Source: a virus
Length of the DNA stretch: 64,000 bases
Virus genome (UHGV): UHGV-0064883
Strand: one strand, 5' to 3'
Shown here: piece after piece, positions 1,421 to 63,462 of the stretch
Position numbering within the stretch: the first letter of the stretch is position 1
Layout of the letters: each line of letters opens with the position of its first letter
The notes under the pieces: generated by a model
Told to the model about the DNA's origin: nothing
Database searches by the model: none
The model's input: the letters and a program-made list of their open reading frames with translations, nothing else
Position numbers and translations under genes: made by a program

Positions 1421-1437
1421 TTTGCAATCATTGCAAA
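1421..1437. promoter_or_regulatory. 17-bp palindrome TTTGCAATCATTGCAAA (copy in repeat A)
   Basis: Perfect inverted repeat 10 nt after the stop at 1411. Confidence 0.8.
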
Positions 1438-2324
1438 TTTTCCTTTTCCCCTCTTTTTTACTCTTCCCGCCTGTCCCGATTGCCGGAATCCCCCAGTAGT
1501 GAGTTCCGCGCCTGCTGGGTTTTCAAAAATTCTTTCCAGTAGTGCTCATACGGCCTGTTCGGCTGCGACCGGATAATTTCTCTGCAAATCCGCGCATTTT
1601 TCAGCAGGCTTTCCATGCCGGAAATCATTGCGGTGTCTGGATGCTCTTCTGTCATATCTGCGGGAGATTTCCCTGGCCCAAATCGGCGGGAAGACAGCCG
1701 TGGACGACCCTCACCACTACTCCCCCGGAACGATCGAATACGGAAAAGTAGTATTAAACCTCGCCTGCCTGACAGCCGTCCTTCTGGAAACGTGGGAAGC
1801 CCAGCGTTCATTGAGCGGAGGGGAAAAATCCAAAGACCGGAAACCGGACGACGCGGAATCCGCAGCAGGCCCATTCGGAGCTTGACCCGTACCCCCCCCG
1901 CATACAATACCGCATAGCCTACACCTCGACATGATATATGCTTTCGGCGCAGGACAACGAAAGCCTCCGGTGGAGGCTGATTCAGATGAATGTAATCGTC
2001 GTCTGGTTTTACCTCCTGCGGCTCCGGGATTCCGGAATCTGGAACAAACACCTGCAGCAGAAGCTGGACGACACGGAACTCGTCTTTTTAATCATCAAAT
2101 GGTACATGTGGTACATGCCCGTTCTGTTCCCCGCCTGATTGCGGGTGGCGAGATGAGATAAAATGATGGGCCGCGCGGAAAAAACGTGTAAAACGTGTAA
2201 AACATGTAAAATATGTGCAGTGCATGTATGCAGGGGGGACATATCGCGCGCAGGCGCGGATGCGTAAAGGCATGCGGCCCTACCCCCCCCTATGAAAGTA
2301 AATAAATAAAGAAAAAAATCGGAA

Positions 2325-3080
2325 ATGCACGCCTATTTGCTCTACACACCGGGGGAAATGCTGGAAGGCGAAGACGAACTTACCGCACTGGGCTACCATG
2401 TCCATCCTTTTTTGGGCAATAATGATACGTCCGGCCTCCGGAACAAAGTCAAACACATTCCCAGCCTGGGGCATTCCGCGTCCTATTTATCAGACGGACT
2501 GGGCTACAACTGGTGCGGCCACGTCCATGCGCTCCGCGCCAACTTTGCAACCATGCTGGAAACTTACATGGATGCGGACGACCTTACTATATATGGAGAG
2601 TCGGACTGCGTGCCCGCGCCTTATCCCCCTGTGTCCGCCGACGATATTTCCTGTGTTTGTCAAGAAGCGGTTTCCCGGCATCCTGAAATCGGCATCATCC
2701 GTCTGTACCGCCGCGCCACACTATTTAACGAGCCTACCTGGTGGAACCATGCGCCCCTTGAGATTGTCCCGCTGAAAAAGGCGGCCAGAATCTCCAACAT
2801 TCCTTTTACGAAATATTACTGTCAAACCCACGCCCTGATTATCCGCAGGCACGTCCGCCAAACGGTCATCGACGCCATGCGGGATTATTATTTGCCCATT
2901 GACGTGCTCCTATCTTATTTGTCCCAGATTGGGACCGTGCCCGTGTGGCACACCAGCATCAACCTAATGCTTCAACGCCCCCACAGCACGGGAAAGAGGC
3001 TGGCGGACTGGCAGCGCAAACATTCTGTTCCGGCAGCGGACTATTGGCGCGACAGGCCCGGACTGACTGGAAAAAGGTAG
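2325..3080 (+). CDS. Identical second copy of the 251-aa protein; repeat copy B
   Basis: Identical translation to 656..1411. Confidence 0.55.
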   Translation: MHAYLLYTPGEMLEGEDELTALGYHVHPFLGNNDTSGLRNKVKHIPSLGHSASYLSDGLGYNWCGHVHALRANFATMLETYMDADDLTIYGESDCVPAPYPPVSADDISCVCQEAVSRHPEIGIIRLYRRATLFNEPTWWNHAPLEIVPLKKAARISNIPFTKYYCQTHALIIRRHVRQTVIDAMRDYYLPIDVLLSYLSQIGTVPVWHTSINLMLQRPHSTGKRLADWQRKHSVPAADYWRDRPGLTGKR

Positions 3081-3089
3081 GTGCACAAA

Positions 3090-3106
3090 TTTGCAATCAT
3101 TGCAAA
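3090..3106. promoter_or_regulatory. 17-bp palindrome TTTGCAATCATTGCAAA (copy in repeat B)
   Basis: Identical to 1421-1437. Confidence 0.8.
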
Positions 3107-3126
3107 TTTTCCTTTTCCCCTCTTTT

Positions 3127-3324
3127 TTACTCTTCCCGCCTGTCCCGATTGCCGGAATCCCCCAGTAGTGAGTTCCGCGCCTGCTGGGTTTTCAAAAATT
3201 CTTTCCAGTAGTGCTCATACGGCCTGTTCGGCTGCGACCGGATAATTTCTCTGCAAATCCGCGCATTTTTCAGCAGGCTTTCCATGCCGGAAATCATTGC
3301 GGTGTCTGGATGCTCTTCTGTCAT
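3127..3324 (-). CDS. Small hypothetical protein (65 aa) from an ATG at 3324; same sequence in copy A at 1458..1655
   Basis: Coding-like codon usage, MTEEHPDTAMISGMESLLKNARICREIIRSQPNRPYEHYWKEFLK... It is convergent with the 251-aa gene across the palindrome at 3090. Confidence 0.3.
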   Translation of the reverse strand: MTEEHPDTAMISGMESLLKNARICREIIRSQPNRPYEHYWKEFLKTQQARNSLLGDSGNRDRREE

Positions 3325-3380
3325 ATCTGCGGGAGATTTTAATAAAAAAAGTTCATTTAAGAAAGATTTTTTCTCACTTT

Positions 3381-3416
3381 TTTCTTGCAATTCTAATCAT
3401 TGAATGATAAATTGAC
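3381..3416 (+). promoter_or_regulatory. Promoter-like box TTCTTGCAAT-N20-TAAATTGA
   Basis: Matches the TTG/N19-20/TAnnTT consensus seen about 10 times in the window. Followed by the leader AAAACCGAATTAGAAAGACCAAAACAATG, which is identical to the leader at 53686-53715. Confidence 0.55.
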
Positions 3417-3485
3417 TTTGTTGACGGGAGGTAAGGGACCAACCGAAAGCACAAAACAAAAAACCGAATTAGAAAGACCAAAACA

Positions 3486-3743
3486 ATGAACGCTGATAAA
3501 ACCTACAATGTAAGAGAAATCTTCACCACGAATTACTACGAAATCGTTGTCGCCGGAGAAGCGGTGAAGAATTATGATGAAGAAGGAAGAACTTACAACT
3601 TTTATTGCCCGGTGTGGGAAGCCCACGGCACGAGACATGGATTTGTCAGCGGCAATGTCTCCGAAGAGGATAAAGATTTTGATGATGTAAGAATCATCCT
3701 CGAAAAAGCGGAAGAATACAACTTGGTTGTAGGTTGGGACTAA
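3486..3743 (+). CDS. Small hypothetical protein (85 aa)
   Basis: ATG ORF behind the conserved promoter/leader cassette. Confidence 0.6.
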   Translation: MNADKTYNVREIFTTNYYEIVVAGEAVKNYDEEGRTYNFYCPVWEAHGTRHGFVSGNVSEEDKDFDDVRIILEKAEEYNLVVGWD

Positions 3744-3797
3744 AACAGCAAACGCCATTACGCTGAATAAATCAAAAACTGGAAAGGACAAAAGACA

Positions 3798-4121
3798 ATG
3801 AGCGCAGACAAAATCATCATCACGGAAGACGGCGAAGAAATCAATCTGACTACTCTTGAACGCGAGTTCGGCAGCTATCAGTTTGAGGGCAAGACCTACT
3901 ATGCCACGCGTCAAATGGAGTTTACCAACCGCGAGTTCCTGGGATGTTTCGAGGAAGCGGAAGAAGGAGAAGAATACGTCTCCGAATATTCCGCCCCCGG
4001 ATATGACGAAAACGGAAACCCCGTGGAAATCTTCATGATGTTCACGGAAATAAAAGGCGAAGAGGTGGACCCGGAAAACCTTAACCGGTTCCAGGACGCC
4101 GACCGCGTTGAAGTCCGCTAA
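3798..4121 (+). CDS. Small acidic hypothetical protein (107 aa)
   Basis: ORF with a GGAAAGGA purine-rich stretch upstream. Confidence 0.55.
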   Translation: MSADKIIITEDGEEINLTTLEREFGSYQFEGKTYYATRQMEFTNREFLGCFEEAEEGEEYVSEYSAPGYDENGNPVEIFMMFTEIKGEEVDPENLNRFQDADRVEVR

Positions 4122-5132: not shown

Positions 5133-5540
5133 ATGATTAGTCTTCTCGGCATTTTTGATGCTCCGCCGGATTGGAGCAAGGGCACTATTTACTGCATTGG
5201 GCAAAAATCCGATAGTTGGAGCAAGCCCGATTCCTACCGCCTTTCCGACATCCCGGAACAGCACCGGGAAGCGCTCGCGTCCATTGTCAAAGGATTCACC
5301 ATGTTGAGCGACGAGTGGTACTGCACGCAGTTCTGGGCTGCATTCTCCTACCGCATGGAGACAGTGGAATCGGAATCCGGGGAACAGGAATCAACGCGCG
5401 TTCCCGGCATTGCCATCCGCATGGAGTGCCGGCATAAGGACACAGGGGCCTTGAGATTGCTGACCCCTAAAGACAATCCGGCCCTGTGGCTCACCGACAG
5501 CGCGTCAATGGCGTTGTACTCGGCTCTGTGCGACGATTGA
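5133..5540 (+). CDS. Hypothetical protein (135 aa from first ATG; the ORF opens with GTG at 5031)
   Basis: ORF track entry 5031..5540; first in-frame ATG at 5133. Confidence 0.45.
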   Translation: MISLLGIFDAPPDWSKGTIYCIGQKSDSWSKPDSYRLSDIPEQHREALASIVKGFTMLSDEWYCTQFWAAFSYRMETVESESGEQESTRVPGIAIRMECRHKDTGALRLLTPKDNPALWLTDSASMALYSALCDD

Positions 5541-5557
5541 TTACGTCTTTCTGCGAA

Positions 5558-5574
5558 TTTGCAATCATTGCAAA
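5558..5574. promoter_or_regulatory. 17-bp palindrome TTTGCAATCATTGCAAA followed by a T7 run
   Basis: 18 nt after the stop at 5540 and upstream of the sulfation operon. Confidence 0.8.
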
Positions 5575-5624
5575 TTTTTTTCGCACTCTCATGAGTGCGT
5601 GGATTGAAACTGCAACACCAGCCT

Positions 5625-6290
5625 ATGAGCGTTTTTACCTATCCGGTCGAGGGCCTTCGCCGCGTGCTGATTCCGCAGAAATGCGGCTGGACGCTAGCCT
5701 GGGATTCCCTCCCCCGCTGGAACGGTCGGGTGGTGATTGACTCCAATGACTACCCCGCGAAAAATCTGGACTGCATGTTTGTCAGGGAGCCGGTGGCCCG
5801 GTTCATGTCCGCTTTCCGGAACAAGATAGAGTTCGGGCCGCAGTCCTACCCCAAAAACGCCAACGGTCAGTTCAACGTCTGGTCCGGCATCCAATGGGTT
5901 GCCTGTGTGTGCGGCATCCCCCCGGACCTGGTGCAGAAGCAGGTTACTGTGTCCCTGATGCTGGACGTGTTGGAGGACATCATCAAAAAAAAACCGAGGG
6001 CGGCGCAATACAACCACGCCGTACTTGACCTGCACTGGTCCCCGCAGGTCTATCATGTGGCCCCCGGCCATATTCCGGAACTGCTCATTGACCCCCGGAA
6101 CGATTTTTCCGTCCTGGACAGATTAAAAATTGACTACTCTACGCACAATCACAATAATACCAGCCGTTATGGAGGCTACCAGCCTACACCGGAAGAGGTC
6201 GCACGCATCAAGGCCCTGTATGCCGAGGATGTAGCACTTTACGCCAGATACCAGCATGATTACGCCCTTCGCCAGTTACCCGCCCAGTGA
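5625..6290 (+). CDS. Sulfotransferase, PF03567-like (Sulfotransfer_2 family)
   Basis: IPQKCGWT matches the 5'-PSB PAPS-binding motif (P-K-x-G-x-T). MFVREPVARFMSAFRNK matches the 3'-PB motif (V-R-d-P-x-x-R-x-x-S-a-Y/F-r-n-K). Start taken at the first ATG, 5625; the ORF opens at GTG 5595. Confidence 0.7.
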   Translation: MSVFTYPVEGLRRVLIPQKCGWTLAWDSLPRWNGRVVIDSNDYPAKNLDCMFVREPVARFMSAFRNKIEFGPQSYPKNANGQFNVWSGIQWVACVCGIPPDLVQKQVTVSLMLDVLEDIIKKKPRAAQYNHAVLDLHWSPQVYHVAPGHIPELLIDPRNDFSVLDRLKIDYSTHNHNNTSRYGGYQPTPEEVARIKALYAEDVALYARYQHDYALRQLPAQ

Positions 6291-7107
6291 CGCCCCGGAG
6301 TTCATCAAATACTCCCACCACCTGATTGACCTCGCCTTGAGAAAAGCCCGGCGTCCGGCCATCCTCTGTTCCTACGGCAAGGATTCCGGCGTTGTCCTGC
6401 ATTTGCTCTCCCAGCACGTCGATTTATCCCGCATCGACGTTATTTACATTGATTCCACTTTTGAATTCCCGGCGTTTTACAAGCACATTGCCGGGATGAA
6501 AGCCTTTTTCGGCATCCGGCACGGCGGCCCTCATGACGTGCACTGCCAGAATAACCAGGCCATCCGTTCCGGCATGTCCTACGACAACACCCCGGTGCTC
6601 AAGTTGACGCAGACCCTGAAAACCGACGTATTGGTGCAGGTGCTGAAAGAGCGAAATATTGACTTTCTGTTCACCGGCATCCGGCGCGACGAAGAGGGTT
6701 CCCGTGCCAAGGAACGCTATTTCTCCTACCGGGAAGCCGACGGCACGTTTGACCCGGTAAGCAACCGCCCCGGATTCTATCCGCTGGACGGGCTGGATGT
6801 GCAGTCCCCCGGTTCCGGGCATTACCGCGTCAATATCCTTCTGGGCTGGTCGGAGCGGGACGTGTGGGAATACACGGAAAAGCACCTGCTTCCCGTCTGC
6901 CCGCTGTACCTTGCCAAAGACGGAAAGCGCTACCGCTCCCTTGGAGACGAGCCGGTGACTACTCCGGTGGATTCCGACGCTGACAGCATCGACAAAATCA
7001 TCAAGGAGCTGTACCATACCAGCGTGCCGGAACGGGCATGCCGGAAATCACAGGACAATTCCGCGCCGTACGCAATGGAGATGCTGCGGCGCAAGGGATT
7101 CTGCTAA
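6256..7107 (+). CDS. cysD: Sulfate adenylyltransferase subunit 2 (CysD; PAPS-reductase/PP-loop family)
   Basis: LCSYGKDSGVVLHLL (PP-loop SxGxDS), FTGIRRDEEGSRAKERYFSYRE, LGWSERDVWEYTEKHLLPVCPLY and RSLGDEPVTTPV align closely with the bacterial CysD blocks [49 protein letters not shown]...VPLY and RTLGCWPLTGAV. Confidence 0.85.
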   Translation: MITPFASYPPSDAPEFIKYSHHLIDLALRKARRPAILCSYGKDSGVVLHLLSQHVDLSRIDVIYIDSTFEFPAFYKHIAGMKAFFGIRHGGPHDVHCQNNQAIRSGMSYDNTPVLKLTQTLKTDVLVQVLKERNIDFLFTGIRRDEEGSRAKERYFSYREADGTFDPVSNRPGFYPLDGLDVQSPGSGHYRVNILLGWSERDVWEYTEKHLLPVCPLYLAKDGKRYRSLGDEPVTTPVDSDADSIDKIIKELYHTSVPERACRKSQDNSAPYAMEMLRRKGFC

Positions 7108-7137
7108 CAGTTCCATTTTTTCCTTTCCGCTCTTGCC

Positions 7138-7860
7138 ATGATACCGGATGACCCGTTCACCCAGCCGGAAAAAAAACCTGAAAAGCCGGGAGGCATCACG
7201 CAAATCTGGATAGGCGGAGAAGATAATATACCGCAGGAAATGCGGGAATGGATGTCCGGGGTGCGGGCCTACTGCAACCAGTTCAACCTTCCGTACCGCT
7301 GTTTGAACGGGAGGCAATGCAAGGCTCTGCTGGATGAGTTCGGCATCCCGTTCAATCCTACCGGGGGCATCATGAGCCTGACCGACATGGCGCGGGTGTG
7401 TGCCCTGAAAAAATGGGGCGGCTGGTATCTGGACACAGACGTAAAAATCCAGCGTCCGGCAGCCTTCCATGATTACTCGGTTTCTGTCTGCGAACAGGAG
7501 CCTTCTACTGTTTTTTACAATGCCATCACCTACGGCTGGATGTACAATCACGGAGTGCTTTATGCCTCCGGGGACGATTCCTGCCTGTTCCTGGATGCCA
7601 TGCTGGACGCGTGCCGGGAGACGTACAAGACAGTCCATGCTTCCGATTCCGGGTGGGGGCTGGAAAGCACCGTTCAGAATATGGTGCATCATGACCGCCA
7701 ATGGGTAGGCTGGCATCAAGGACTGCCAAAGGGCGTTTGCGATTGCGGCAATCCGTCCAGCATGATTAACCATGTGCTTTATGGGACCTGGTACAATAGC
7801 GCACACATGACTCCCGGCATCAAGGACGCGGAAACTTATTCAAAGGTTTCCGATTTGTAG
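7138..7860 (+). CDS. Glycosyltransferase, GT32-like (Och1/TcdA-type DXD sugar transferase)
   Basis: WIGGE...LTDMARVCALKKWGGWYLDTDV matches the GT32 signature (sD..R...L.k.GG.Y.D.D). Confidence 0.7.
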   Translation: MIPDDPFTQPEKKPEKPGGITQIWIGGEDNIPQEMREWMSGVRAYCNQFNLPYRCLNGRQCKALLDEFGIPFNPTGGIMSLTDMARVCALKKWGGWYLDTDVKIQRPAAFHDYSVSVCEQEPSTVFYNAITYGWMYNHGVLYASGDDSCLFLDAMLDACRETYKTVHASDSGWGLESTVQNMVHHDRQWVGWHQGLPKGVCDCGNPSSMINHVLYGTWYNSAHMTPGIKDAETYSKVSDL

Positions 7861-7909
7861 TCCGGAATAATTTTTGCAAAAAAGAAAAAACAATGGTAAT
7901 ACGTAGCGC

Positions 7910-8761
7910 ATGCCACGTGAAAAAATCATCATTGCCGTGTGCGGAATCCCTGACACGGGAAAAAGCACTTTTATCGCCAACGCCGCGAAACACCTGAACG
8001 GAATGGAGGTCCAGCCGGATGCCCTGTGCGTAGAGCAGCAGACCGGGAAAACCATTGCAACCTCATTCATCACCACCTGGGGCGAAGAGTGGCAGCGGGA
8101 CGGAAAAACCTGCGATTTGGTCTTTGTGGACTGCCCCGGCCATGTGCAGTTCCTTCCGGAGATTGTCGCGGGCTTGTCTGCGGCCCATGCCTACATTGTC
8201 ATCCATGACGCTTCCCGCATTGAGGCGAGCCAGGCATATGCCCGGATGCTGGAAGATGTCGCAGGCGTGCTTGGCGTGCCTCGGCTCGCCACCCTCTACA
8301 GCCATTGCGACAGCACCGGGGAATACTGCTACAACGTGGGTGTTGACAACCGGCTTCCGGGAATTGCCGAAAGGGTTATCCGGCGTGCCCTGGCGGGCGG
8401 CAAAGATAAGCTGGTTCATCCCACGGCATCCTGGCTTGGCTACATCCGGCAGGAGCCGTTCGATACGCCTGATGCCCGGCACAGGGTGTCCGTCATCTGG
8501 CTTCCCTGCGCTTCCCGGCTCACTCCGGTTTCCCTTCTCCGGGCAGAGCTTCCCGACCGAACGGTCGAACTCGGAGAGGCTGGCTCCGTTCTAGACCCCA
8601 TCCCCAGGGAAAGCGACTTCCAGACCGCCCCATTGATACGGCACATTTACCTGCAATTCCCTGTCCGGTATCTGGACCCCGTGCGCTTCCTGATTTGCGA
8701 CTCGGAGCTGGGAACGGTCGGAGTCGGAACAGTAACCCCGTGGGAAACCCAAATGTTATGA
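7910..8761 (+). CDS. CysN/EF-Tu-like GTPase (283 aa; truncated, divergent putative sulfate adenylyltransferase subunit 1)
   Basis: G1 CGIPDTGKST and G3 DCPGHVQF (DxPGH) match translation-factor/CysN GTPases. No canonical NKxD motif. Adjacent to cysD. Its stop overlaps the next start (ATGA). Confidence 0.55.
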   Translation: MPREKIIIAVCGIPDTGKSTFIANAAKHLNGMEVQPDALCVEQQTGKTIATSFITTWGEEWQRDGKTCDLVFVDCPGHVQFLPEIVAGLSAAHAYIVIHDASRIEASQAYARMLEDVAGVLGVPRLATLYSHCDSTGEYCYNVGVDNRLPGIAERVIRRALAGGKDKLVHPTASWLGYIRQEPFDTPDARHRVSVIWLPCASRLTPVSLLRAELPDRTVELGEAGSVLDPIPRESDFQTAPLIRHIYLQFPVRYLDPVRFLICDSELGTVGVGTVTPWETQML

Positions 8762-8979
8762 GCAACGTAGCTATCCCATACCAGCCCCACGACTGCCCCG
8801 TCTGCGGAAAGAACCTCTGCTACAGCGCCGGAAAGGACGGCTGCTATTATTCCTGCCCGGAATGCAGGTATTCCGTCCAGTCCGGTGCGACCCTGCAAGA
8901 AGCACAAAGGCATCTTTTCATCTTTGCGGCGGCAGTCCTCAAAAACCAGAACACGCAACACGACACCATCACCCAATGA
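8758..8979 (+). CDS. Small zinc-ribbon protein (73 aa)
   Basis: CPVCGKNLCYSAGKDGCYYSCPECRY contains two CxxC pairs. ATGA overlap with the upstream gene and with cysC downstream. Confidence 0.5.
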   Translation: MSNVAIPYQPHDCPVCGKNLCYSAGKDGCYYSCPECRYSVQSGATLQEAQRHLFIFAAAVLKNQNTQHDTITQ

Positions 8980-9479
8980 TTATTCTTCTCACCGGCGAAA
9001 GCGGCGTCGGAAAAACGTCTGTGGCAAAAACCCTGATGAACCGGCATCCGGGCATCCTTCTCGACGGCGACGACATGCGGGACGGATTGAACAGCGACCT
9101 TGGGTTTTCCGACCAGGACATCATGGAGAACATGCGCCGGGCGGCGCACATAGCCGTACTGCTGCATGACCAGCTTCCGGAAGACCGGCGCACGGTTTAC
9201 ATCACCTGCATTGCCCCGCTGCTGGCCGGAAGGAATCTGGTGCATGAGCTGTGCGGTTCCCGGTTGTGGGAGATTCGCATCCAGTATGATTACCGGGCTT
9301 CCGACGACGTAAAAGGGTTGTACAAGGCGGGAACCCCCATGCGGGCCTACGAAGAGTACCCCAGCGAAACGTTGCTGCTCCCCCGCCGGATAAACCGCGT
9401 GTACCGGTACTACAACGATACCGTGTGCGCTCTGGCCGCCAAAATAGAAAAGCTGTGGCCTGCGGACAAAACCGCTTGA
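8976..9479 (+). CDS. cysC: Adenylylsulfate (APS) kinase CysC
   Basis: ILLTGESGVGKTSVAKTL (P-loop), LLDGDDMRDGLNSDLGFSDQDIMENMRRAAHIA and KGLYKAGTPMRAYEEYP match the APS-kinase motifs TGLSGSGKST, LDGDNvRhGLnkDLgFsdeDR.ENiRR and KGLYkkAr.g....FTGi. Confidence 0.9.
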   Translation: MIILLTGESGVGKTSVAKTLMNRHPGILLDGDDMRDGLNSDLGFSDQDIMENMRRAAHIAVLLHDQLPEDRRTVYITCIAPLLAGRNLVHELCGSRLWEIRIQYDYRASDDVKGLYKAGTPMRAYEEYPSETLLLPRRINRVYRYYNDTVCALAAKIEKLWPADKTA

Positions 9480-9615: not shown

Positions 9616-9632
9616 TTTGCAATGATTGCAAA
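9616..9632. promoter_or_regulatory. 17-bp palindrome, centre-G variant TTTGCAATGATTGCAAA, followed by T7
   Basis: Read directly from the sequence. Confidence 0.8.
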
Positions 9633-9654
9633 TTTTTTTCGGCAATCCTGAATT

Positions 9655-9724
9655 TTTATCTTGCAATTTTTAAAAAGAAAGGTATGATGAAGGCATCAAA
9701 GGGAGGAAAAAGCGAATCTCCCTT
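9655..9724 (+). promoter_or_regulatory. Promoter-like box ATCTTGCAAT-N19-TATGATGA plus leader hairpin CATCAAAGGGAG-GAAAAAGCGAAT-CTCCCT
   Basis: Same cassette architecture as at 51501, 53611, 62631 and 63491. Confidence 0.55.
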
Positions 9725-11814: not shown

Positions 11815-11831
11815 TTTGCAATCATTGCAAA
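11815..11831. promoter_or_regulatory. 17-bp palindrome TTTGCAATCATTGCAAA
   Basis: 35 nt after the stop at 11780. Confidence 0.8.
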
Positions 11832-12269: not shown

Positions 12270-12828
12270 AAATCACTATAAACCGGGTACAGCGGTACTA
12301 GTCCGGGGAATTGTCGTAGGAGAATATAACCCTGATGATGGTAATGCTTCCGTTTCCGTAAGGCTTAATACCCATATGGATTATGGGCGTAATATACTGT
12401 TTTCCCCGGATAAGCTGGAAAAGGTTAAACCTGCTTCCACCAGGAGATTCCGGAAAGGGGACAAGGTACGCCTTATTTACAGAGGCCGAAAGGCCCCGGA
12501 AGGGTTGCGGTATGATAAAATCTACACTGTGACGGAGAATGAAACCGCATATGGCCTGTGCCGCCTTACTGATGGCGTTGCAAATTATTCCTGCCTGGAA
12601 TTAGTTGAAGCAGCTGAAGAATCCTACGACATTCCTTTCCATGAGGCGGTGCGCCTGATGGGCGAAGGAAAAATACTGGAACGGATACGCAATGGTAGTA
12701 CTCTTCAATACCGGCTGGTTGACGGGAATCCCCAATTTTCAAATGCCGACGTAGATGGAACCCCAGAATGGAGGTCCATAATATTTTGGGGAGACGACAT
12801 CAACGCCAAATGGAAAATTGTCGAATAA
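12262..12828 (+). CDS. Hypothetical protein (188 aa from the ATG at 12262)
   Basis: ORF. Its start overlaps the previous stop. Confidence 0.5.
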   Translation: MPKNHYKPGTAVLVRGIVVGEYNPDDGNASVSVRLNTHMDYGRNILFSPDKLEKVKPASTRRFRKGDKVRLIYRGRKAPEGLRYDKIYTVTENETAYGLCRLTDGVANYSCLELVEAAEESYDIPFHEAVRLMGEGKILERIRNGSTLQYRLVDGNPQFSNADVDGTPEWRSIIFWGDDINAKWKIVE

Positions 12829-16466: not shown

Positions 16467-16483
16467 TTTGCAATCATTGCAAA
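16467..16483. promoter_or_regulatory. 17-bp palindrome TTTGCAATCATTGCAAA
   Basis: Between the stop at 16443 and the start at 16494. Confidence 0.8.
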
Positions 16484-19464: not shown

Positions 19465-19481
19465 TTTGCAATGATTGCAAA
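19465..19481. promoter_or_regulatory. 17-bp palindrome, centre-G variant TTTGCAATGATTGCAAA
   Basis: 17 nt after the stop at 19448. Confidence 0.8.
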
Positions 19482-23501: not shown

Positions 23502-23518
23502 TTTGCAATCATTGCAAA
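23502..23518. promoter_or_regulatory. 17-bp palindrome TTTGCAATCATTGCAAA upstream of the capsid gene
   Basis: 4 nt after the stop at 23498. Confidence 0.8.
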
Positions 23519-29533: not shown

Positions 29534-29550
29534 TTTGCAATCATTGCAAA
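29534..29550. promoter_or_regulatory. 17-bp palindrome TTTGCAATCATTGCAAA
   Basis: 20 nt after the stop at 29514. Confidence 0.8.
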
Positions 29551-33548: not shown

Positions 33549-33565
33549 TTTGCAATCATTGCAAA
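33549..33565. promoter_or_regulatory. 17-bp palindrome TTTGCAATCATTGCAAA
   Basis: 15 nt after the TMP stop. Confidence 0.8.
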
Positions 33566-37267: not shown

Positions 37268-37305
37268 TGTATCTTGATGCCTTCATCATAGCTATCTTTT
37301 TAAAA

Positions 37306-37320
37306 ATTGCAAGATAAAAA
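37306..37320 (-). promoter_or_regulatory. Minus-strand copy of the TTTTTATCTTGCAAT promoter-like box
   Basis: Plus strand reads ATTGCAAGATAAAAA. Confidence 0.5.
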
Positions 37321-37340
37321 TACACATTCCGCGAGAAAAA

Positions 37341-37357
37341 TTTGCAATCATTGCAAA
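37341..37357. promoter_or_regulatory. 17-bp palindrome TTTGCAATCATTGCAAA between divergent genes
   Basis: Read directly from the sequence. Confidence 0.8.
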
Positions 37358-40189: not shown

Positions 40190-40206
40190 TTTGCAATCAT
40201 TGCAAA
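40190..40206. promoter_or_regulatory. 17-bp palindrome TTTGCAATCATTGCAAA at the edge of the AT-rich region
   Basis: Read directly from the sequence. Confidence 0.8.
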
Positions 40207-40720
40207 CCGGAAAAACCGGTGATTCAAGGCCGTAATTCTACGGTCTTTTTTATTTGTCAATATTGTTTTTTACGTTTTTATAACTTATTGAGCATCATTT
40301 GGTTGCAAATAGTATGCACCAAGAAATTTCTAGTTTAGTTATTTGTCATTGAGTATTAGATACTTACAAATAATTTGCACTTTTATAAGTTCAGGGCATT
40401 TGCAGGCGTTTGAGTATCAATAAGTTATAAATGCACTAAATCCGGAAAAACGCGCTGAATCCGCAATGGGTGCAAATATAACCAGCTGATTATCATATCA
40501 TTGTGCATAACTTGCACTTGCGCGGAAGTGCATTTATTTTACAAACTACTGAAAATGAACAGGTTATAAAGACAACCAGAAGGGAAAAACGTCAATTTTT
40601 GTTTTTATAAGTCATTGAACTATATGAAATTATAAAAAATTTGCACTTTGGGAGTGCATTAATATATATATATATATAATGTTCGTTCCTCACATTAATA
40701 TATATCTATATTCTCCGTCC
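40207..40720. repeat. ORF-free AT-rich region with repeated TTATAA, (A)ATTTGCAC and TTGCAAAT elements and a (TA)8 run at about 40662-40680
   Basis: GC content is visibly far below the flanks. No ORF of 60 aa or more. Repeats counted by eye. Confidence 0.7.
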
Positions 40721-42161: not shown

Positions 42162-42178
42162 TTTGCAATCATTGCAAA
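42162..42178. promoter_or_regulatory. 17-bp palindrome TTTGCAATCATTGCAAA
   Basis: 8 nt after the stop at 42154. Confidence 0.8.
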
Positions 42179-45135: not shown

Positions 45136-45152
45136 TTTGCAACGATTACAAA
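45136..45152. promoter_or_regulatory. Degenerate palindrome copy TTTGCAACGATTACAAA
   Basis: Two mismatches from the consensus. Confidence 0.5.
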
Positions 45153-51461: not shown

Positions 51462-51478
51462 TTTGCAATGATTGCAAA
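51462..51478. promoter_or_regulatory. 17-bp palindrome, centre-G variant, followed by T7
   Basis: 22 nt after the polymerase stop. Confidence 0.8.
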
Positions 51479-51500
51479 TTTTTTTCGTGAATTGAATACT

Positions 51501-51560
51501 TTTATCTTGCAATTTTCATTTTTTAGTGTTATAACAAACCCATCAAAGGGCGAAAGCCCT
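51501..51560 (+). promoter_or_regulatory. Promoter-like box TTTATCTTGCAAT-N20-TATAACAA plus leader hairpin CATCAAAGGGC-GAAA-GCCCT
   Basis: Cassette consensus. Confidence 0.55.
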
Positions 51561-51583: not shown

Positions 51584-52852
51584 ATGAGCAAGACCGAAAT
51601 TGATATTACCAAGCCGCTTAATCTGGCTGACCGCCAAGAACTCCGTTTTATCGGATATGCCACGCAGAATAACGACCCGAAGCTGTCTCCGGGGGATGTC
51701 ATCTATTTTCTGAAACAGGCGCGGGACGATAAAAACATCCCTGTTTATGACGTTGCCACTACCAAAAAGGGCAAGGTAGCCGTGGAAAGTCTTTACGCTG
51801 ACGAATTTGAAGTTGTGGATGCGGATTCCGCGCCGGAAGTCGCCCCGGTTGCGGCCCCTGCCAAAAAGAAAAAGACGGAACTCAAGAAGGTGGAGGAACC
51901 CGGCGAAGAGCAGCCCGCCCCCAAGGCTAAGAAGGCCAAAGCCGTCAAAGCGGAAGCTGCCCCTGCCAAGAAGACCAAGAAGGAAAAAGTGAAGGCCGAA
52001 GCCCCCGTGGAAGTGCAGGAGCCGCAGGAAGTCCAGGAACCTGCAGCTGAGGTTGAATCCGTTCCCGCCGTCCAGCCCGAAGCCGTCAAGGAGGTTGAAG
52101 ACATCAAGCCCGCCTCCACTCCGGAATTGGGAATGGATGCCGTAACCCTTAACTTGATTCAGGAACACGGCGGGAATGCCTGTGCCGCCGCCCTTGCCAT
52201 TGCCAAGGATTCTGAGGCTAAGCGATTCCTTCTTGGCGGCGTGCTGCTGTACATTCAAAAAACAAAAGTTTATGAAGAAGAAAAGGATTCTGCCGGAGTT
52301 CCACGCTTCACCGGGCAAAAGGGCTTTGCCATGTTTTGCGAGCAATACATCGGGCTTTCCTACTCTTCCGCAAAATTGTACCAGCGCATCTATGCTAATT
52401 TTACCAGCATGGGCCTCGGTGTTGAGGATTTTCGGAGAGTGGGTACGGCTAAGGCCCGTGAAATTGTGCAAATGATTGAGCTGGATTTTTCCAAGGCTGA
52501 TGTCGAAGAGGCTATTCATATCGGCGAAACGAAAACGCACGAAGAACTGCACTCCCATGTGAGCTCGAAAATGCAGGATGCTGAAATTGAGGGGCATGGA
52601 CTGCGTGATAAAGTCAAATGCACGCTCTACAAATTCGAGGTGTTTGCCGACCAGGAAGACATCATCAACGCCGCCATCCGGCTGGCAATGGACAACGGGG
52701 ACATCAAGGACACCGATCAGAACGCCCTTGGACGCGCGTTTGTTTCCATTTGCTCCGACTATTTGCAGGCATATAGCAAAGTGGCGCAGCCGACGGTGGA
52801 CGAAACTGAAGAATTTCAGGAATCTGTAGCCCAGGAATCCGTCAATGCCTGA
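51584..52852 (+). CDS. Hypothetical protein with a histone-H1-like K/A/P/E-rich central linker (422 aa)
   Basis: PAKKKKTELKKVEEPGEEQPAPKAKKAKAVKAEAAPAKKTKKEKVKAEAP low-complexity region. Confidence 0.5.
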   Translation: MSKTEIDITKPLNLADRQELRFIGYATQNNDPKLSPGDVIYFLKQARDDKNIPVYDVATTKKGKVAVESLYADEFEVVDADSAPEVAPVAAPAKKKKTELKKVEEPGEEQPAPKAKKAKAVKAEAAPAKKTKKEKVKAEAPVEVQEPQEVQEPAAEVESVPAVQPEAVKEVEDIKPASTPELGMDAVTLNLIQEHGGNACAAALAIAKDSEAKRFLLGGVLLYIQKTKVYEEEKDSAGVPRFTGQKGFAMFCEQYIGLSYSSAKLYQRIYANFTSMGLGVEDFRRVGTAKAREIVQMIELDFSKADVEEAIHIGETKTHEELHSHVSSKMQDAEIEGHGLRDKVKCTLYKFEVFADQEDIINAAIRLAMDNGDIKDTDQNALGRAFVSICSDYLQAYSKVAQPTVDETEEFQESVAQESVNA

Positions 52853-53570: not shown

Positions 53571-53587
53571 TTTGCAACGATTGCAAA
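53571..53587. promoter_or_regulatory. 17-bp palindrome, centre-CG variant TTTGCAACGATTGCAAA, followed by T7
   Basis: Read directly from the sequence. Confidence 0.75.
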
Positions 53588-53610
53588 TTTTTTTCTCAAA
53601 AAGATTCTTT

Positions 53611-53671
53611 TTTCTCTTGCAATTCATCAAAAATAATGCTAACTTATATTCATCAAAGGGAGGGAATCCCT
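53611..53671 (+). promoter_or_regulatory. Promoter-like box TTTCTCTTGCAAT-N20-TAACTTAT plus leader hairpin CATCAAAGGGAGGGAATCCCT
   Basis: Cassette consensus. The leader 53686-53715 is identical to 3459-3488. Confidence 0.55.
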
Positions 53672-54080: not shown

Positions 54081-54530
54081 ATGAAAAAGAACACATACGT
54101 AAGAACACGCCGTCAGGAGCCGCTGAATTCCGAAGTGAAGCAGCCGACCTCCAAGGAACTGGAAGACATCGCTACGCTGGCCCGACAGTTTTATCAGCAG
54201 AACAAGATTAAAAATGCTGCTTCGACCAAGGAGCGTTCCATACGGTCCCGGCTGCTTTCCCTGTGCGTGGAAGCCGGGGTGAAGTCCCAGGAAGTGGACT
54301 GCATCACCGAAGATGGAACCAAGCTCGTGCTGTCTGTCACTGTGGCCCCAGGGCAGAAAAGCGTTATTGACCTGGACACGCTGAAACGGCTCATTCCTGC
54401 AGAACTGTACGAAAAATGCCTGTCCGCCACCCAGTCGAAAGTGGAGGAAGTGGCCGGAAAGAGCATTGCACTGGCCGCGAGGCGCGTAGTGTCCACGGAA
54501 ATGAACGTGTCCGTGTCCACGAAAAAGTAA
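54081..54530 (+). CDS. Hypothetical protein (149 aa)
   Basis: ORF. Confidence 0.5.
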   Translation: MKKNTYVRTRRQEPLNSEVKQPTSKELEDIATLARQFYQQNKIKNAASTKERSIRSRLLSLCVEAGVKSQEVDCITEDGTKLVLSVTVAPGQKSVIDLDTLKRLIPAELYEKCLSATQSKVEEVAGKSIALAARRVVSTEMNVSVSTKK

Positions 54531-56784: not shown

Positions 56785-58209
56785 ATGGACGCTATTTTAT
56801 CTCAACTTTGCTGGATTCCAAAAATGCGGTTAACGCCGACACAGGAAGCGGAATTGATTTCCGACCTGACTATTTACCCACGGCTTTCCGGGTTTTCGGA
56901 TGATGCAGCTCTGAAAAAGATTCAAACGTTCATTTCCGGCAAAACTTATATCGGCGTGCCGTGCTTTTACGGGCGGCAGTGGTGCGAGAAGCACCGCATT
57001 GCCATTAAGGATGACACGTCTTCCGGGTTTAACATTTCCCGGTACATCCGCAAGTTGCCCGACCCGCATCATCCGTCCGCTTCCCAGGGGCAGGAAGAAT
57101 TCTTTTCTTCCCTTCTGGAAACGGTCAAATCCAACAATACCGTTTTGGCCGAAGCCCCCACTGGAAGCGGAAAAACCGTGACGGCATTGAATGCCATTGG
57201 TCGCCTGGGGCGTTCCGCGCTGATAGTCGTCCCGAACGGTCCATTGATGGAACAATGGAAAAAAGAGGCTATCCGGCATCTTGGATTGACCGAGGATGAA
57301 GTCGGCGTGATTGGCGGGGGTAAATCCGTTTGGAAGGACAAGCCGGTGGTGGTGGCTATCATTCACAATATTTGCATGGCCTCCATGCCGGATGCGTTTT
57401 ACCGGGCGTTTGGTATTACGGTATGGGATGAGGCCCATGTTGTGGGTGCGGAGTGGTTTAGTTTGTCCACGCAGCACCTGCGCTCAAAATACCGGATTGC
57501 CATTACCGCCACCCCAAACCGTTCCGATGGGTGCATGCGAATTGTTACGGACGCATTCGGCCCCGTTGCCGTAAGGCATAGCGGGAACGCGGTTCCGCTG
57601 ATTTATGCCCCGTTGAGTTACAATCTCCCGGCTAAACTGCGGGCCTGGGCTGACCGTGCCCAGGGTAAAGAGATGTCCAGAGTGCTAAAGGCCTTGACCG
57701 CTGACTTGCCGCGTAATATTAAAATCGGGAGGCTGGCGGTTGCCGGATATAAAAAAAACCGTAACATACTGCTGATTTCCGACCGCATTTCCCACTTGGA
57801 GGCCATGCAGGATATTTTAGTTCATCTCGGCATTCCGTCCGAACACATAGGCATGTTTTCCGGGGCGGTAAAGGGCGACAAGGACGCATCCGGGAAAAAA
57901 AAGTTGACCAAAAAACAAAAACTGGATGATGTGGTCAAAAATCCTAAATACCGGGTGATTCTGGCGACCTACGCAATGATGAAACTCGGAATTGATATCC
58001 CCCGGCTCGACATGGGAATTGACATCAGTCCGAAGAGTGAGGCCGTGCAGACTGTGGGGCGCATCAGGAGGCCGTTCCCGAACAAGCCGACCCCAGTCTG
58101 GTTTACGGTTGTCGATTCCAGCCGGAAATTCCAGGCCCTGTACCGCAGCCGGGAACGGGAACTGCTGTCGAAGGGCAGCGTAGAAATAAGACCGATTAAA
58201 ACTTTATGA
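56785..58209 (+). CDS. Superfamily-2 (DEAD/DEAH-box) DNA helicase
   Basis: Motif I AEAPTGSGKTV, II VWDEAHVV, III ITATPNRSDG, V LATYAMMKLGIDIP, VI VQTVGRIRR. Confidence 0.8.
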   Translation: MDAILSQLCWIPKMRLTPTQEAELISDLTIYPRLSGFSDDAALKKIQTFISGKTYIGVPCFYGRQWCEKHRIAIKDDTSSGFNISRYIRKLPDPHHPSASQGQEEFFSSLLETVKSNNTVLAEAPTGSGKTVTALNAIGRLGRSALIVVPNGPLMEQWKKEAIRHLGLTEDEVGVIGGGKSVWKDKPVVVAIIHNICMASMPDAFYRAFGITVWDEAHVVGAEWFSLSTQHLRSKYRIAITATPNRSDGCMRIVTDAFGPVAVRHSGNAVPLIYAPLSYNLPAKLRAWADRAQGKEMSRVLKALTADLPRNIKIGRLAVAGYKKNRNILLISDRISHLEAMQDILVHLGIPSEHIGMFSGAVKGDKDASGKKKLTKKQKLDDVVKNPKYRVILATYAMMKLGIDIPRLDMGIDISPKSEAVQTVGRIRRPFPNKPTPVWFTVVDSSRKFQALYRSRERELLSKGSVEIRPIKTL

Positions 58210-58751
58210 CATTAAGTGACACTAACAAAACTGCTGTTGAGGCCGGAGCCGGGAATGATTCTGCCCGGATTCCTGGCCGCAAAAAAAAATACGAGACAAA
58301 GCGTGAAATGCAGATAGCGAAAAACCGCTACCACAAAACGCTGACCTACAAAGTCAAAAACCGGGCGCGGTATCATGTGGATTCCGACTACCGGGAATCG
58401 GTACGATTGCAAAACCGGAAAGCAAATGAGCGGAAGAAACGCATCATGCTGGCGCAGGCAGTCGTCCGGGGAGGGAAGTACCTGCGTGCGGTGATGAACG
58501 AACCGCCCATTGTCGTTGCTGGGGAAGAGCTGATAACAAGAAAAAGATTTTTGGAGTTAATCAGCCGGTCATATCCAACCCTGGTACGGTGGAGGGCACA
58601 CAGAAAATTTACCGTGGAGGAAGTGCACATTTCCGTGGTCCGGAACGGTCGAGTTGTCCCCCGTCTGGAACAGATAGCCTACCGGAAAAAAGATTTAATC
58701 CAATTCATCGATGCCAACCGCGAGTATGTCGGACTGACGAAAACGAGCTAA
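58206..58751 (+). CDS. Hypothetical basic protein (181 aa)
   Basis: ORF. ATGA overlap with the helicase. Confidence 0.5.
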   Translation: MTLSDTNKTAVEAGAGNDSARIPGRKKKYETKREMQIAKNRYHKTLTYKVKNRARYHVDSDYRESVRLQNRKANERKKRIMLAQAVVRGGKYLRAVMNEPPIVVAGEELITRKRFLELISRSYPTLVRWRAHRKFTVEEVHISVVRNGRVVPRLEQIAYRKKDLIQFIDANREYVGLTKTS

Positions 58752-60789: not shown

Positions 60790-60790
60790 C

Positions 60791-61999: not shown

Positions 62000-62565
62000 A
62001 CATCCTCGGCATTGACCCGTCCCTGACTGCCACCGGGCTTTATTTGCGGGAAACCGGGCTTATGGCCGCCCCGGAATCCACGCTGATTGCCCCAAAAAAT
62101 TTGAGGGACATGGAGCGGCTGTGTTTTATCCGCGACTTCCTTCTCGGATTCATCAACAGAGACCGGGCGTTTTTTCCCGAATTGGCGGTCATTGAAGGGT
62201 ACGCAATGGGGGCGAAAACCCATACGCACGACCTCGGAGAAGCCGGAGCCATGCTGAAAACTGCGGTTTACGAGGCGGGAATTGACCTGCTGATAGTCCC
62301 GCCCGCCACGCTGAAAAAGTTCATCACGGGAAGCGGGAACAGCAAAAAACAAGTGATGATGGTGGAAGCGCTTTCTCGGTATCATGTTAAAATCACCGAT
62401 GATAATATTTGTGATGCGTTCTGCCTGACACACTTTGGGGAAGCCTGGTACGCGGCTAATGCTTTTGGCCGTACAGCGGGAGGAATCGGCATCACAAAAA
62501 GCCAGTATGCCTGCCTGTCCGCTGCCCGGCTGGTTCCTGGCCGCAAACGGTCGTCTCGGAGATAA
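61996..62565 (+). CDS. ruvC: RuvC-family Holliday-junction resolvase
   Basis: MNILGIDPSLTATGLYL, LAVIEGYAMG, KKFITGSGNSKKQVMMVEAL, DDNICDAFCLTHFG fit RuvC catalytic motifs (ILGIDPG...TG; E..f; K..vtG.G.A.K.QV; DaaDAlAvA). Confidence 0.85.
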   Translation: MNILGIDPSLTATGLYLRETGLMAAPESTLIAPKNLRDMERLCFIRDFLLGFINRDRAFFPELAVIEGYAMGAKTHTHDLGEAGAMLKTAVYEAGIDLLIVPPATLKKFITGSGNSKKQVMMVEALSRYHVKITDDNICDAFCLTHFGEAWYAANAFGRTAGGIGITKSQYACLSAARLVPGRKRSSRR

Positions 62566-62592
62566 CCGGCTGCCGGTTTTTCCTTTTTTCAA

Positions 62593-62609
62593 TTTGCAAT
62601 CATTGCAAA
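62593..62609. promoter_or_regulatory. 17-bp palindrome TTTGCAATCATTGCAAA followed by T7
   Basis: Read directly from the sequence. Confidence 0.8.
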
Positions 62610-62630
62610 TTTTTTTCGCTGACTGTGTAA

Positions 62631-62694
62631 TTTTATCTTGCAATTTCTAAAAAATAATGCTAAATTGCATTCATCAAAGGGAGGGAAACCTCCC
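62631..62694 (+). promoter_or_regulatory. Promoter-like box TTTTATCTTGCAAT-N20-TAAATTGC plus leader hairpin CATCAAAGGGAGGGAAACCTCCC
   Basis: Cassette consensus. Confidence 0.55.
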
Positions 62695-62730
62695 AAGAAT
62701 AAAAAACCTAAAAACCTGAAAGACAAGATT

Positions 62731-62943
62731 ATGAATAACAAAGAAACATTCTATCTGGTTGAAGTTTACCACCTCGGAACCGCTGTTGGCAGCCTTATTT
62801 CCCTTGACCATGTGCACCGCTGCAAGTCCCTGGAATCTGCGAAAGATTTCGGTTCCATCATGAAAGAAAAAAATGGGTGGTTTGAAGTAACGGAAATCAC
62901 TTCCGAAGGCCGTTCCATTGTGTTTGATTCCCGCAACAACTAA
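62731..62943 (+). CDS. Small hypothetical protein (70 aa)
   Basis: ATG ORF behind the cassette. Confidence 0.5.
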   Translation: MNNKETFYLVEVYHLGTAVGSLISLDHVHRCKSLESAKDFGSIMKEKNGWFEVTEITSEGRSIVFDSRNN

Positions 62944-63187
62944 CCCGTCAAGACAATGAAAGTACAAGCTAAAATTATCACCGAACAGGAGTACAAATGG
63001 TACGGGGGTTGCCCCTCAAGATGCGGAACACGGAATGGGAAAATCGGTATAAAGAAAACGGCATTAAGTTTGAAACCCGCGTGAATATCTAAAATCCTCA
63101 AGCCCCTCTTTGGAGGGGCAAGACCCCTCCACCGCAACCAGAAAAACTTTTCAGCAGTAAAAATTTTCGGTGGTACTAATTAGGTTC

Positions 63188-63233
63188 TGCCCCTTTTCCG
63201 GCCTTTCGTTGCTGGGAAGGGGGCAGTTTTTTT
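63188..63233 (+). terminator. Rho-independent terminator
   Basis: CTGCCCCTTT...AAGGGGGCAG stem plus T7. Confidence 0.7.
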
Positions 63234-63399
63234 GCGTCAATTTGTAGTGGTATTTTTAATTTTAGCGCACAAATAACTATATATTGCGGCTATTTTCGTA
63301 AACGGTTGACTTTAAGAAAAATAAACTCTTGAACCGGTTTGACGGCAAGTTAAGATGCCGGAGGTTAAACACTAGTTTGGCTGTCTTCTATCTTTTCGA

Positions 63400-63440
63400 C
63401 CCCTAATTCGGAGTGATGCCCGGATTAGGGGCCTTTTTTT
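63400..63440 (+). terminator. Rho-independent terminator
   Basis: CCCCTAAT-16 nt-ATTAGGGG plus T7. Confidence 0.75.
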
Positions 63441-63445
63441 CTCCA

Positions 63446-63462
63446 TTTGCAATGATTGCAAA
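63446..63462. promoter_or_regulatory. 17-bp palindrome, centre-G variant, followed by T7
   Basis: Read directly from the sequence. Confidence 0.8.

Follow-up and report, generated by a model that had tools for sequence, protein, structure and literature searches.

A dispersed 17-bp palindrome in the genome of an uncultured gut phage: a candidate operator network for a phage-encoded DNA-binding protein

What reads a short palindrome that recurs 19 times between the genes of a phage genome, and does it act in DNA or in RNA? The question is raised by a 64,000-nucleotide stretch of the UHGV virus genome UHGV-0064883 (hereafter the window), which is part of the genome of an uncultured siphovirus-like phage with nearly all genes on the + strand, and which encodes a portal, a major capsid protein, a tape measure protein, DnaB, PolA, a primase, a helicase, RecA and RuvC. 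Dispersed dyad repeats are known from a few phages, e.g. the Cluster O mycobacteriophages; for a decade they have lacked an explanation. We observed the sites, their conservation and symmetry, their occurrence throughout a phage family and their geometry with respect to promoters, and we consider it moderately probable that the palindrome is a double-stranded DNA site for a dimer of a phage-encoded sequence-specific protein, i.e. that the copies form a dispersed operator network, with the product of the gene at 51584-52852 as the likeliest binder.

The initial annotation of the window, made from the sequence alone, had listed 19 copies, and all of them were recovered at the same positions: 16 are exact matches to TTTGCAAT-N(0-3)-ATTGCAAA, and three are near copies, at 45136 (two mismatches), 53571 and 58763 (one mismatch each). 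It had also proposed a comparison with a shuffled background; the exact pattern is absent from 100 dinucleotide-preserving shuffles, and a search allowing up to three mismatches yields 19 sites in the window versus a mean of 0.38 in the shuffles. The architecture is 8-1-8, a perfect dyad around a single central S, which is C in 12 and G in seven of the sites and never A or T. The peptide ICNHCKF, which had been noticed as the trace of the motif in spurious frames, is indeed found in the start of a spurious open reading frame (ORF). At least three further copies are present in L003, one of the related loci referred to here by L numbers and a part of the same genome beyond the window, which brings the network to at least 22 sites over a genome of approximately 84-90 kb.

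All 19 copies in the window (Table 1) lie outside credible coding sequence, as had been claimed; the claim that they follow a stop codon at 3-35 nt holds for 16 of them with respect to + strand genes, and fails at 9616 (136 nt), 63446 (502 nt) and 37341 (49 nt), the last of which is effectively upstream of a minus-strand gene. Three copies scored as coding in our ORF-based classification owing to over-extended TTG starts; this crude classification proved unreliable in GC-rich relatives, and only its result for the window was used. Three palindromes are located only 9-10 nt ahead of the next ATG, inside operons. A run of seven T residues (T7) follows seven copies, the number that had been reported (5558, 9616, 51462, 53571, 58763, 62593 and 63446).

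Table 1. Palindrome copies, promoter cassettes and other features of the window discussed in the text
Feature	Coordinates	Strand	Remarks
Palindrome copy TTTGCAATCATTGCAAA	1421..1437		in first unit of 1669-bp tandem duplication
Palindrome copy	3090..3106		in second unit of 1669-bp tandem duplication
Palindrome copy	5558..5574		followed by T7; no TCTTGCAAT box
Palindrome copy, centre G	9616..9632		head of promoter cassette
Palindrome copy, stand-alone	11815..11831		next ATG 42 nt on
Palindrome copy, stand-alone	16467..16483		ATG of head-morphogenesis gene 10 nt on; no T run
Palindrome copy, centre G, stand-alone	19465..19481		
Palindrome copy	23502..23518		major capsid gene 110 nt downstream
Palindrome copy, stand-alone	29534..29550		no T run
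Palindrome copy after tape-measure gene	33549..33565		next ATG 9 nt on; no T run
Palindrome copy	37341..37357		heads the sole minus-strand promoter cassette; A5 at left on + strand
Palindrome copy	40190..40206		left border of AT-rich non-coding region
Palindrome copy	42162..42178		AAA+ ATPase gene 34 nt downstream
Degenerate palindrome copy TTTGCAACGATTACAAA, 2 mismatches	45136..45152		identical in 6 close relatives
Palindrome copy, centre G	51462..51478		heads cassette of candidate binder gene
Palindrome variant TTTGCAACGATTGCAAA	53571..53587		heads promoter cassette
Palindrome variant TTTGCAACGATTGCAAA	58763..58779		followed by T7; no promoter box
Palindrome copy	62593..62609		heads promoter cassette; small GC hairpin and T run upstream at 62564-62578
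Palindrome copy, centre G	63446..63462		heads promoter cassette; canonical terminator upstream at 63400-63431
Promoter cassette	9616..9722	+	palindrome, T7, ~28 bp, TTGCAA (9661-9666), 16 bp, TATGAT, leader CATCAAAGGG... hairpin
Promoter cassette	51462..51560	+	-35 at 51507-51512; leader from 51541
Promoter cassette	53571..53671	+	-35 at 53617-53622
Promoter cassette	62593..62694	+	-35 at 62638-62643; leader from 62672
Promoter cassette	63446..63547	+	-35 at 63493-63498; leader from 63527
Inverted promoter cassette	37274..37357	-	-35 at 37312-37307; drives minus-strand ORF 36899-37267
AT-rich non-coding region	40207..40720		half-site-like words (TTGCAAAT, TTTGCAC, GTGCAAAT), (AT)n tract
Candidate binder, 422 aa	51584..52852	+	SH3-like N-domain 18-77; disordered Lys/Ala/Glu/Pro-rich linker 82-180; helical C-domain 181-400

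We compared the sites in 113 orthologous alignments with genomes that are 95-99% identical to the window. At the 14 arm positions only six of 1582 cells are changed (0.4%), against 301 of 4972 cells (6.1%) in the flanks. The conserved footprint reaches beyond the 17-mer to AA at its left and TTT at its right; apart from one extra T, this is the symmetric AA-17mer-TT. A different centre base is seen in 27 of the 113 alignments (24%), always between C and G, and no A or T appears among the tabulated variants. This combination of a constrained identity and a free orientation of the centre pair is what is predicted for a two-fold symmetric DNA-protein complex. Thus, the initial suggestion that the sequence rather than the structure is conserved, pointing to a dimeric sequence-specific protein, is backed by population data and also by the cross-lineage comparison described below. 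All orthologous sites are occupied in these relatives; the palindromes do not behave as REP- or MITE-like elements, as no insertion polymorphism was found among the 95-99% identical genomes and the scanned proteins included no RAYT or transposase. Over all 19 palindromes the centre flips, which are transversions, reach four times the divergence of the flanks; they may reflect a spacer that is inverted when the template switches on a hairpin, or exchange from copy to copy.

Six of the sites stand at promoters of one class, of host type, and 13 stand alone. The six belong to cassettes of a common order: palindrome, T run (T7, or T5 in the inverted copy), approximately 28 bp, a T-rich tract, a TCTTGCAAT box (-35), 16-17 bp and TAnnnT (-10). 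Five of them are on the + strand, where a leader (CATCAAAGGG... hairpin) closes the cassette in every case, and one complete copy is on the minus strand, with its T run appearing as A5 on the + strand, on the promoter side. In all six the palindrome starts 45-47 bp ahead of the -35 box, which places the dyad centre at approximately -72, and the intervening sequence has diverged. A promoter-like box had been reported downstream of at least six copies; we find it there at five + strand sites, while at 37341 it lies on the other side and on the minus strand. As had been noted, TTGCAAT is common to the -35 box and the half-site. Four more TCTTGCAAT boxes (at 3385, 41910, 43930 and 55635), apparently promoters of this type too, lack a palindrome, as do most gene boundaries, so that the proposal that the element marks every transcription-unit boundary has to be abandoned. 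The ORF behind the inverted cassette is a plausible gene of 122 aa without a family match, embedded in the tail module and equipped with a full cassette of its own. Located at the predicted 5' ends of five transcripts, the conserved leader (CATCAAAGGG-nn-GAAA/GGAA-nn-CCC; 9694-9722, 51541-51560, 53651-53671, 62672-62694 and 63527-63547) amounts to a short hairpin, whose loop is of the GNRA type in some copies; no Rfam family matches it.

Approximately 100 related loci were gathered by scanning with alignments of the portal and of the helicase and with the candidate protein introduced below. The helicase alignment responded to generic Walker motifs and missed most known relatives, and it contributed L246-L252; a scan of viral contigs with CTGCAACAGTTGCA was uninformative, being swamped by chance single matches. 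A dispersed dyad peculiar to the lineage is present in nearly all lineages for which there is enough sequence, at densities of 0.14-0.54 per kb as compared with about 0 in shuffles; the relatives concerned have portals that are only 40-52% identical, range from 44 to 66% in GC content and come from many biomes. The family form is TGMAAN-(0-3 bp)-NTTKCA, i.e. a half-site TGMAAN with a centre of 0-3 bp beyond a 14-bp core. The dyads of individual lineages include TTGCAA-N3-TTGCAA, TTGAAA-N3/4-TTTCAA, TTGACC-N3-GGTCAA, TTGCAC-N3-GTGCAA, TGAAACC|GGTTTCA, TGCAAC-SS-GTTGCA, TGCAAT-CG-ATTGCA and TGAAAT-CG-ATTTCA, as well as TGCAAC-N-GTTGCA in a relative of 63% GC, where neither a T run nor complementary flanks accompany the dyad. 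The density is extreme in L367 (IMGVR_UViG_3300025572_000001), where TGCAAT-NN-ATTGCA is found 27 times in 20.5 kb. Dyads that are not symmetric face either way: in L188 one site is the exact reverse complement of another, L331 has two of each orientation, L248 has three and one, and in L249 the centre reads CC four times and GG twice, all this in genomes in which almost all called genes are on one strand. In several lineages the dyad is found 6-30 bp upstream of a TTGACA-like -35 box, and in others between a stop codon and the next start.

These comparisons bear on whether the palindromes could be plain intrinsic (Rho-independent) terminators copied around the genome. With terminators and REP elements they share the position after stop codons and the form of an inverted repeat, and seven copies have the arrangement AAA-stem-T7, in which the stem together with its AAA/TTT flanks amounts to 10 bp (-7.4 kcal/mol). 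Yet 12 of the 19 copies have no T7, three are those just ahead of an ATG inside operons, and the T run, which had been taken for a terminator tail, turns out to be part of the promoter cassette, oriented with the promoter and moving with it even in the inverted copy at 37341, where it lies on the opposite strand. Instead of the stable GC-rich stem-loop of the terminator class, the palindrome has a weak, AT-rich stem with one G and one C in each arm. The RNA hairpins are predicted at -4.7 to -7.4 kcal/mol for the window copies and at -2.4 to -7.1 kcal/mol for those of relatives, with the exception of one L025 copy (-11.2 kcal/mol), which folds by virtue of complementary flanks. Moreover, the phage possesses canonical GC-rich terminators (63187-63226, 63400-63431 and 62564-62578), of which the latter two are directly upstream of palindromes; the order of terminator and then dyad recurs in relatives, where the dyads are mostly followed by A and a T run is usually absent. 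Finally, plain terminators would leave unexplained the strict conservation of sequence rather than pairing, and we regard them as the answer with very little probability.

An RNA hairpin read by a phage or host protein, be it a processing site, a 3'-end stabilizer, a boxB-like antitermination signal or a protein-dependent terminator, would suit sites in transcribed intergenic spacers, mostly 3-35 nt past stop codons. It would also suit the dyad symmetry, which survives changes on both arms across lineages, and the window hairpins, which are more stable than folds of shuffled sequence (z -1.8 to -3.2). The stems are AU-rich, however; 10 of 11 folding tests gave values between -2.4 and -7.4 kcal/mol, and the innermost T:A pair is conserved in spite of its inability to form around a 1-nt loop. 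Across lineages the outer TTG...CAA or TG.AA is invariant, which is unexpected for a pure structure, and asymmetric sites occur in both orientations under nearly one-way transcription, so that the RNA sequence differs between them; the copy at 37341 belongs to a minus-strand cassette. A search of the whole window against Rfam 15 at gathering score gave no match. The RNA-level roles proposed initially (protein-dependent terminator, antiterminator, processing site) thus gained no positive evidence, and they fit poorly because of the occurrence of sites in both orientations and of weak hairpins in several lineages; we consider a function of this kind unlikely.

If the palindrome is instead a DNA site for a phage protein, the best candidate binder that we found is the product of 51584-52852, which the initial annotation had named among three choices for an electrophoretic mobility shift assay. 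Pfam scanning of 50 window proteins revealed no classical repressor domain. Our tblastn searches with the non-enzymatic proteins of the replication module identified two that are present in several lineages, those encoded at 54081-54530 and at 51584-52852. The former is conserved and has no recognizable DNA-binding motif; a homolog of the latter is conserved in all replication-module loci examined and is encoded next after RuvC or its positional equivalent in 10 of 10 loci with called genes, with a gap of 35-180 bp. The dyad of the respective lineage is usually located upstream of this gene, and in the window the gene is preceded by the cassette with the palindrome at 51462. The protein belongs to a PHROG of unknown function, and searches with Foldseek and against Pfam and PDB sequences found nothing. 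Its AlphaFold models show an SH3-like N-domain, a disordered linker and a confidently predicted helical C-domain (pLDDT 87), whose helix-turn-helix appears to resemble the DNA-binding domains of ParB and KorB, a likeness that we rate as moderate and not firm. A further protein, encoded at 58206-58751, basic and excisionase-like at its C-terminus as judged by eye, was set aside, as tblastn found no match to it in relatives, although a similar-sized protein follows the helicase there.

Separate ParB_N proteins are encoded in the genome and in relatives. Two of them in L003 (330 and 179 aa) were considered as direct readers and rejected: their match is confined to the N-terminal domain, and a helix-turn-helix was not detected in them. 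Within a few genes downstream of the candidate, L328 (11239-11955), L331 (4214-5659) and L333 (2704-4922) encode one or two ParB_N-only proteins, in L328 and L333 directly after it, and one is fused or adjacent to methyltransferases. Such an arrangement could reflect a split ParB-like system or a link with DNA modification.

We compared the predicted recognition helix of the candidate, YRKA-x-YLI (YSSA-K-LYQ in the window), with the dyads of the respective lineages. Where x is Arg, Lys or Thr, the half-sites are of the TGCAA type only, in seven of seven distinct helix contexts; where x is Met, Gln or Phe, TGAAA is used in 10 of 14 helix contexts (Fisher p = 0.004, not corrected for phylogeny). 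Position x was picked on the first ten lineages, and the pattern held in loci added later (K in L336, R in L366, T in L377 and L382). L332 has both a divergent helix and a different dyad, TTCTCCG-S-CGGAGAA.

In the model, in which protein binding and the identity of the binder are inferred, one helix-turn-helix would contact each half-site (AA-TTTGCAAT), and the centre pair would have to be G:C in either orientation. The SH3-like domain of the candidate would serve as its dimerization module, as in KorB, and the Lys/Ala-rich, histone H1-like linker would join it to the putative ParB/KorB-type DNA-binding domain, with no CTPase domain involved. At the six cassette sites the protein would activate or repress initiation from approximately -72, and thereby also regulate its own synthesis; at the 13 stand-alone sites it might be a roadblock, an insulator or, by means of the H1-like linker, a DNA-organizing anchor.

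Several observations weigh against this model. Recognizable promoters are missing near 13 of the 19 sites, which the word "operator" alone does not explain, and the six cassettes may be paralogous copies, in which case their fixed spacing would be partly inherited rather than selected. No clear dispersed dyad was found in L329, L334, L335 and L381-L387, all of which carry the candidate protein. The covariation is consistent with the binder model, but it is confounded by shared descent: a column-by-column permutation places x no higher than 10th among 193 columns, and correlation is shown by many of them, equally well by many outside the helix-turn-helix. Four of the top ten columns in this control are in or beside the helix-turn-helix; a raw mutual-information ranking is dominated by highly variable columns. 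The binder may also be another one, either the product of 54081-54530 or a host factor.

A host factor could be a LacI/GalR-type regulator, a nucleoid protein or region 4 of the sigma subunit of the host polymerase. The 14-bp form TGnAAn-CG-nTTnCA of many lineages corresponds to the generic operator pattern of the LacI/GalR family (TGnAAnCGnTTnCA), as is evident for TGAAAT-CG-ATTTCA, TGCAAT-CG-ATTGCA and TGAAAC-CG-GTTTCA, the arms resemble -35 hexamers (the -35 boxes of the window being TTGCAA), and the absence of classical repressor domains from the 50 proteins scanned agrees with a reader supplied by the host. On the other hand, the same architecture extends over biomes and GC contents while the inner bases and the spacing (0, 1, 2 or 3 bp) vary, which fits a co-evolving phage protein better, and a conserved phage protein with a plausible DNA-binding domain is present. 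LacI/GalR operators are even dyads of at least 14 bp with a central CpG, used by the hinge helices of a LacI-type reader; the 8-1-8 site of the window is not of this kind, it and the dyads of several lineages having centres of 1 or 3 bp without the CpG, and no LacI-family match was found by Pfam in the 50 window proteins. We therefore consider a host reader improbable.

The candidate gene is part of the replication and recombination module, and the sites might be secondary origins, initiator boxes, hairpins in single-stranded DNA for primosome or helicase loading, or crossover points favoured when gene modules are exchanged. The centre flips could then be the product of hairpin template switching or of exchange between copies, and jumps in divergence are slightly enriched at the sites (p = 0.027), a weak test in which gene boundaries were uncontrolled. 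Half-site-like words cluster at 40207-40720, close to the minimum of GC skew; the initial report of this cluster is correct in part, three of the seven TTTGCAC/GTGCAAA words of the window plus TTGCAAAT being located there. We nevertheless hold a replication or recombination function to be quite improbable: a separate RepO-like initiator is encoded at 45794-46702, the orthologous positions are stable in all close relatives, so that the sites are not mobile on that time scale, and the fixed promoter spacing is left unexplained. In this 500-bp region, words resembling iterons (TTTGCAC, GTGCAAAT) are accompanied by longer repeats, both direct and inverted, and by an (AT)n tract, the region is near a broad minimum of the cumulative GC skew (30-40 kb), and the RepO-like protein has a winged helix; it is possibly a replication origin or a regulatory region.

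A further reading, which we rate as unlikely, is that the sites, approximately 25 per genome, are primarily centromere- or chromatin-like anchors rather than operators, bound by a CTPase-less, domain-permuted relative of ParB and KorB with an H1-like tail. Together with the ParB_N proteins, which have genes of their own, such a protein may make up a "split ParB", and the DNA may be condensed, bridged or partitioned, e.g. in a plasmid-like carrier state in gut bacteria, or during replication or packaging. If true, this would be a system common to a large, globally distributed and uncultured phage family.

Returning to the proposed dispersed operator network, its closest functional analog is KorB with its OB sites in the IncP plasmids RK2/RP4. 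As there, one short palindrome is present in many copies at promoters and away from them. KorB dimerizes via an SH3-like domain, which makes the architecture of the candidate suggestive. In contrast to KorB, the candidate has no ParB N-terminal (CTP-binding) domain, in place of which we find the SH3-like beta domain and the disordered linker, which means that, strictly speaking, it falls outside the ParB family. Its domain order is permuted (SH3, linker, predicted helix-turn-helix), homology to KorB is not detectable at the sequence level, and the replicon is a phage that looks lytic, with ParB_N-only proteins encoded separately, elsewhere or, in relatives, beside the gene.

Among phages, the many short conserved stoperators of the Cluster A mycobacteriophages L5 and Bxb1 occupy small intergenic spacers near stop codons and are recognized by one phage regulator. 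Stoperators lack symmetry and follow the direction of transcription, and their regulator is the immunity repressor of a temperate phage, whereas the sites described here are symmetric and free in orientation, with asymmetric counterparts in relatives that face either way. Among the 50 window proteins and 10 L003 proteins scanned, a set that covers the structural genes only in part, no member of an integrase or repressor family was detected. The 17-bp conserved inverted repeats of phiC31 and the C1 operators of P1 are likewise 17-bp sites scattered over the entire genome, many at operon ends or promoters, and are all read by one repressor; these operators serve lysogeny control, those of P1 are asymmetric, and no protein homology with the present system is evident. 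The closest descriptive analog is provided by the repeats of the Cluster O mycobacteriophages, a descriptive class and not a homology family. In Corndog, a siphovirus of approximately 70 kb that is not obviously temperate, the 17-bp dyad TGTTCGG-NNN-CCGAACA, read as 7-3-7, occurs in more than 30 copies with invariant arms and a centre that varies in either orientation; most sites are away from promoters, and 11 of 34 are clearly inside genes (PMC4351075). Its authors, who also mention the stoperators, predicted binding of a dimeric protein and left the function unexplained (PMC4351075). The window resembles this class in the 17-bp dyad, the tens of copies, the invariant arms, the free centre and a phage that is not obviously temperate. 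It differs in the sequence and in the intergenic position of all its sites; neither a candidate binder nor covariation across lineages was reported for Cluster O, and the homology comparison of the two phage groups covered distant portal and ATPase matches.

The element is found throughout a large uncultured family that includes one of the most frequently assembled human-gut phages, its half-sites diverge between lineages while the architecture is kept, and a specific candidate protein is at hand. The operator question can be addressed with one recombinant protein and a 21-bp oligonucleotide (AATTTGCAATSATTGCAAATT). If the network is confirmed, it would provide a regulatory code for transcription units in the uncultured genomes of this family, a set of natural orthogonal protein-operator pairs, and a new CTPase-less branch of ParB/KorB-like DNA-binding proteins.

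The window is approximately 97% identical to an 83.6-kb IMG/VR contig, and related contigs from the human gut reach 92 kb. A homolog search with the AAA+ ATPase retrieved only near-identical variants of the same phage, one phage protein being present with identical sequence on 407 contigs. A near-identity search of a phage collection found nothing, and the closest portal of a cultured phage is 27% identical. Membership in the Flandersviridae was considered owing to the similar genome size and gut origin and was not adopted, since that group has contractile-tail genes. Many credible start codons (e.g. at 11874, 14393, 44642, 54081 and 58814) are preceded by A-rich sequence without a Shine-Dalgarno motif, which is typical of Bacteroidota hosts, in contrast to the GC content of the genome (53%) and its -35/-10 promoters with TTGCAA.

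A 1669-bp unit occurs twice in tandem at the left end of the window (1-3339; 656-1411 equals 2325-3080), with a palindrome ending each unit. The 97% identical IMG/VR contig has a single unit (L016 maps to both), and the tandem arrangement may be either a real duplication or an assembly artefact. The neighboring cluster at 5595-9479 encodes a sulfotransferase, a PAPS-reductase-like protein, a DXD glycosyltransferase, a CysN-like GTPase and an APS kinase. In L003 a TET-associated glycosyltransferase and two ParB_N-only proteins are encoded at 5532-6467 and, on the minus strand, at 2814-3353/6464-7456. Together these genes look like a pathway of DNA (or glycan) hypermodification, in which sulfation may take part. 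A Cpn10/GroES-like gene (12768-13190 in the window, and in 15 related loci) is conserved just upstream of the portal region. At the end of the 99-kb related contig L329 we found a 20-bp tandem repeat (CCCCGGCTGGCCCCGGGTGG-like, 15535-15655). Finally, the 650 bp at 62943-63590 contain no convincing ORF and two strong canonical terminators (63187-63226 and 63400-63431), and may encode small RNAs.

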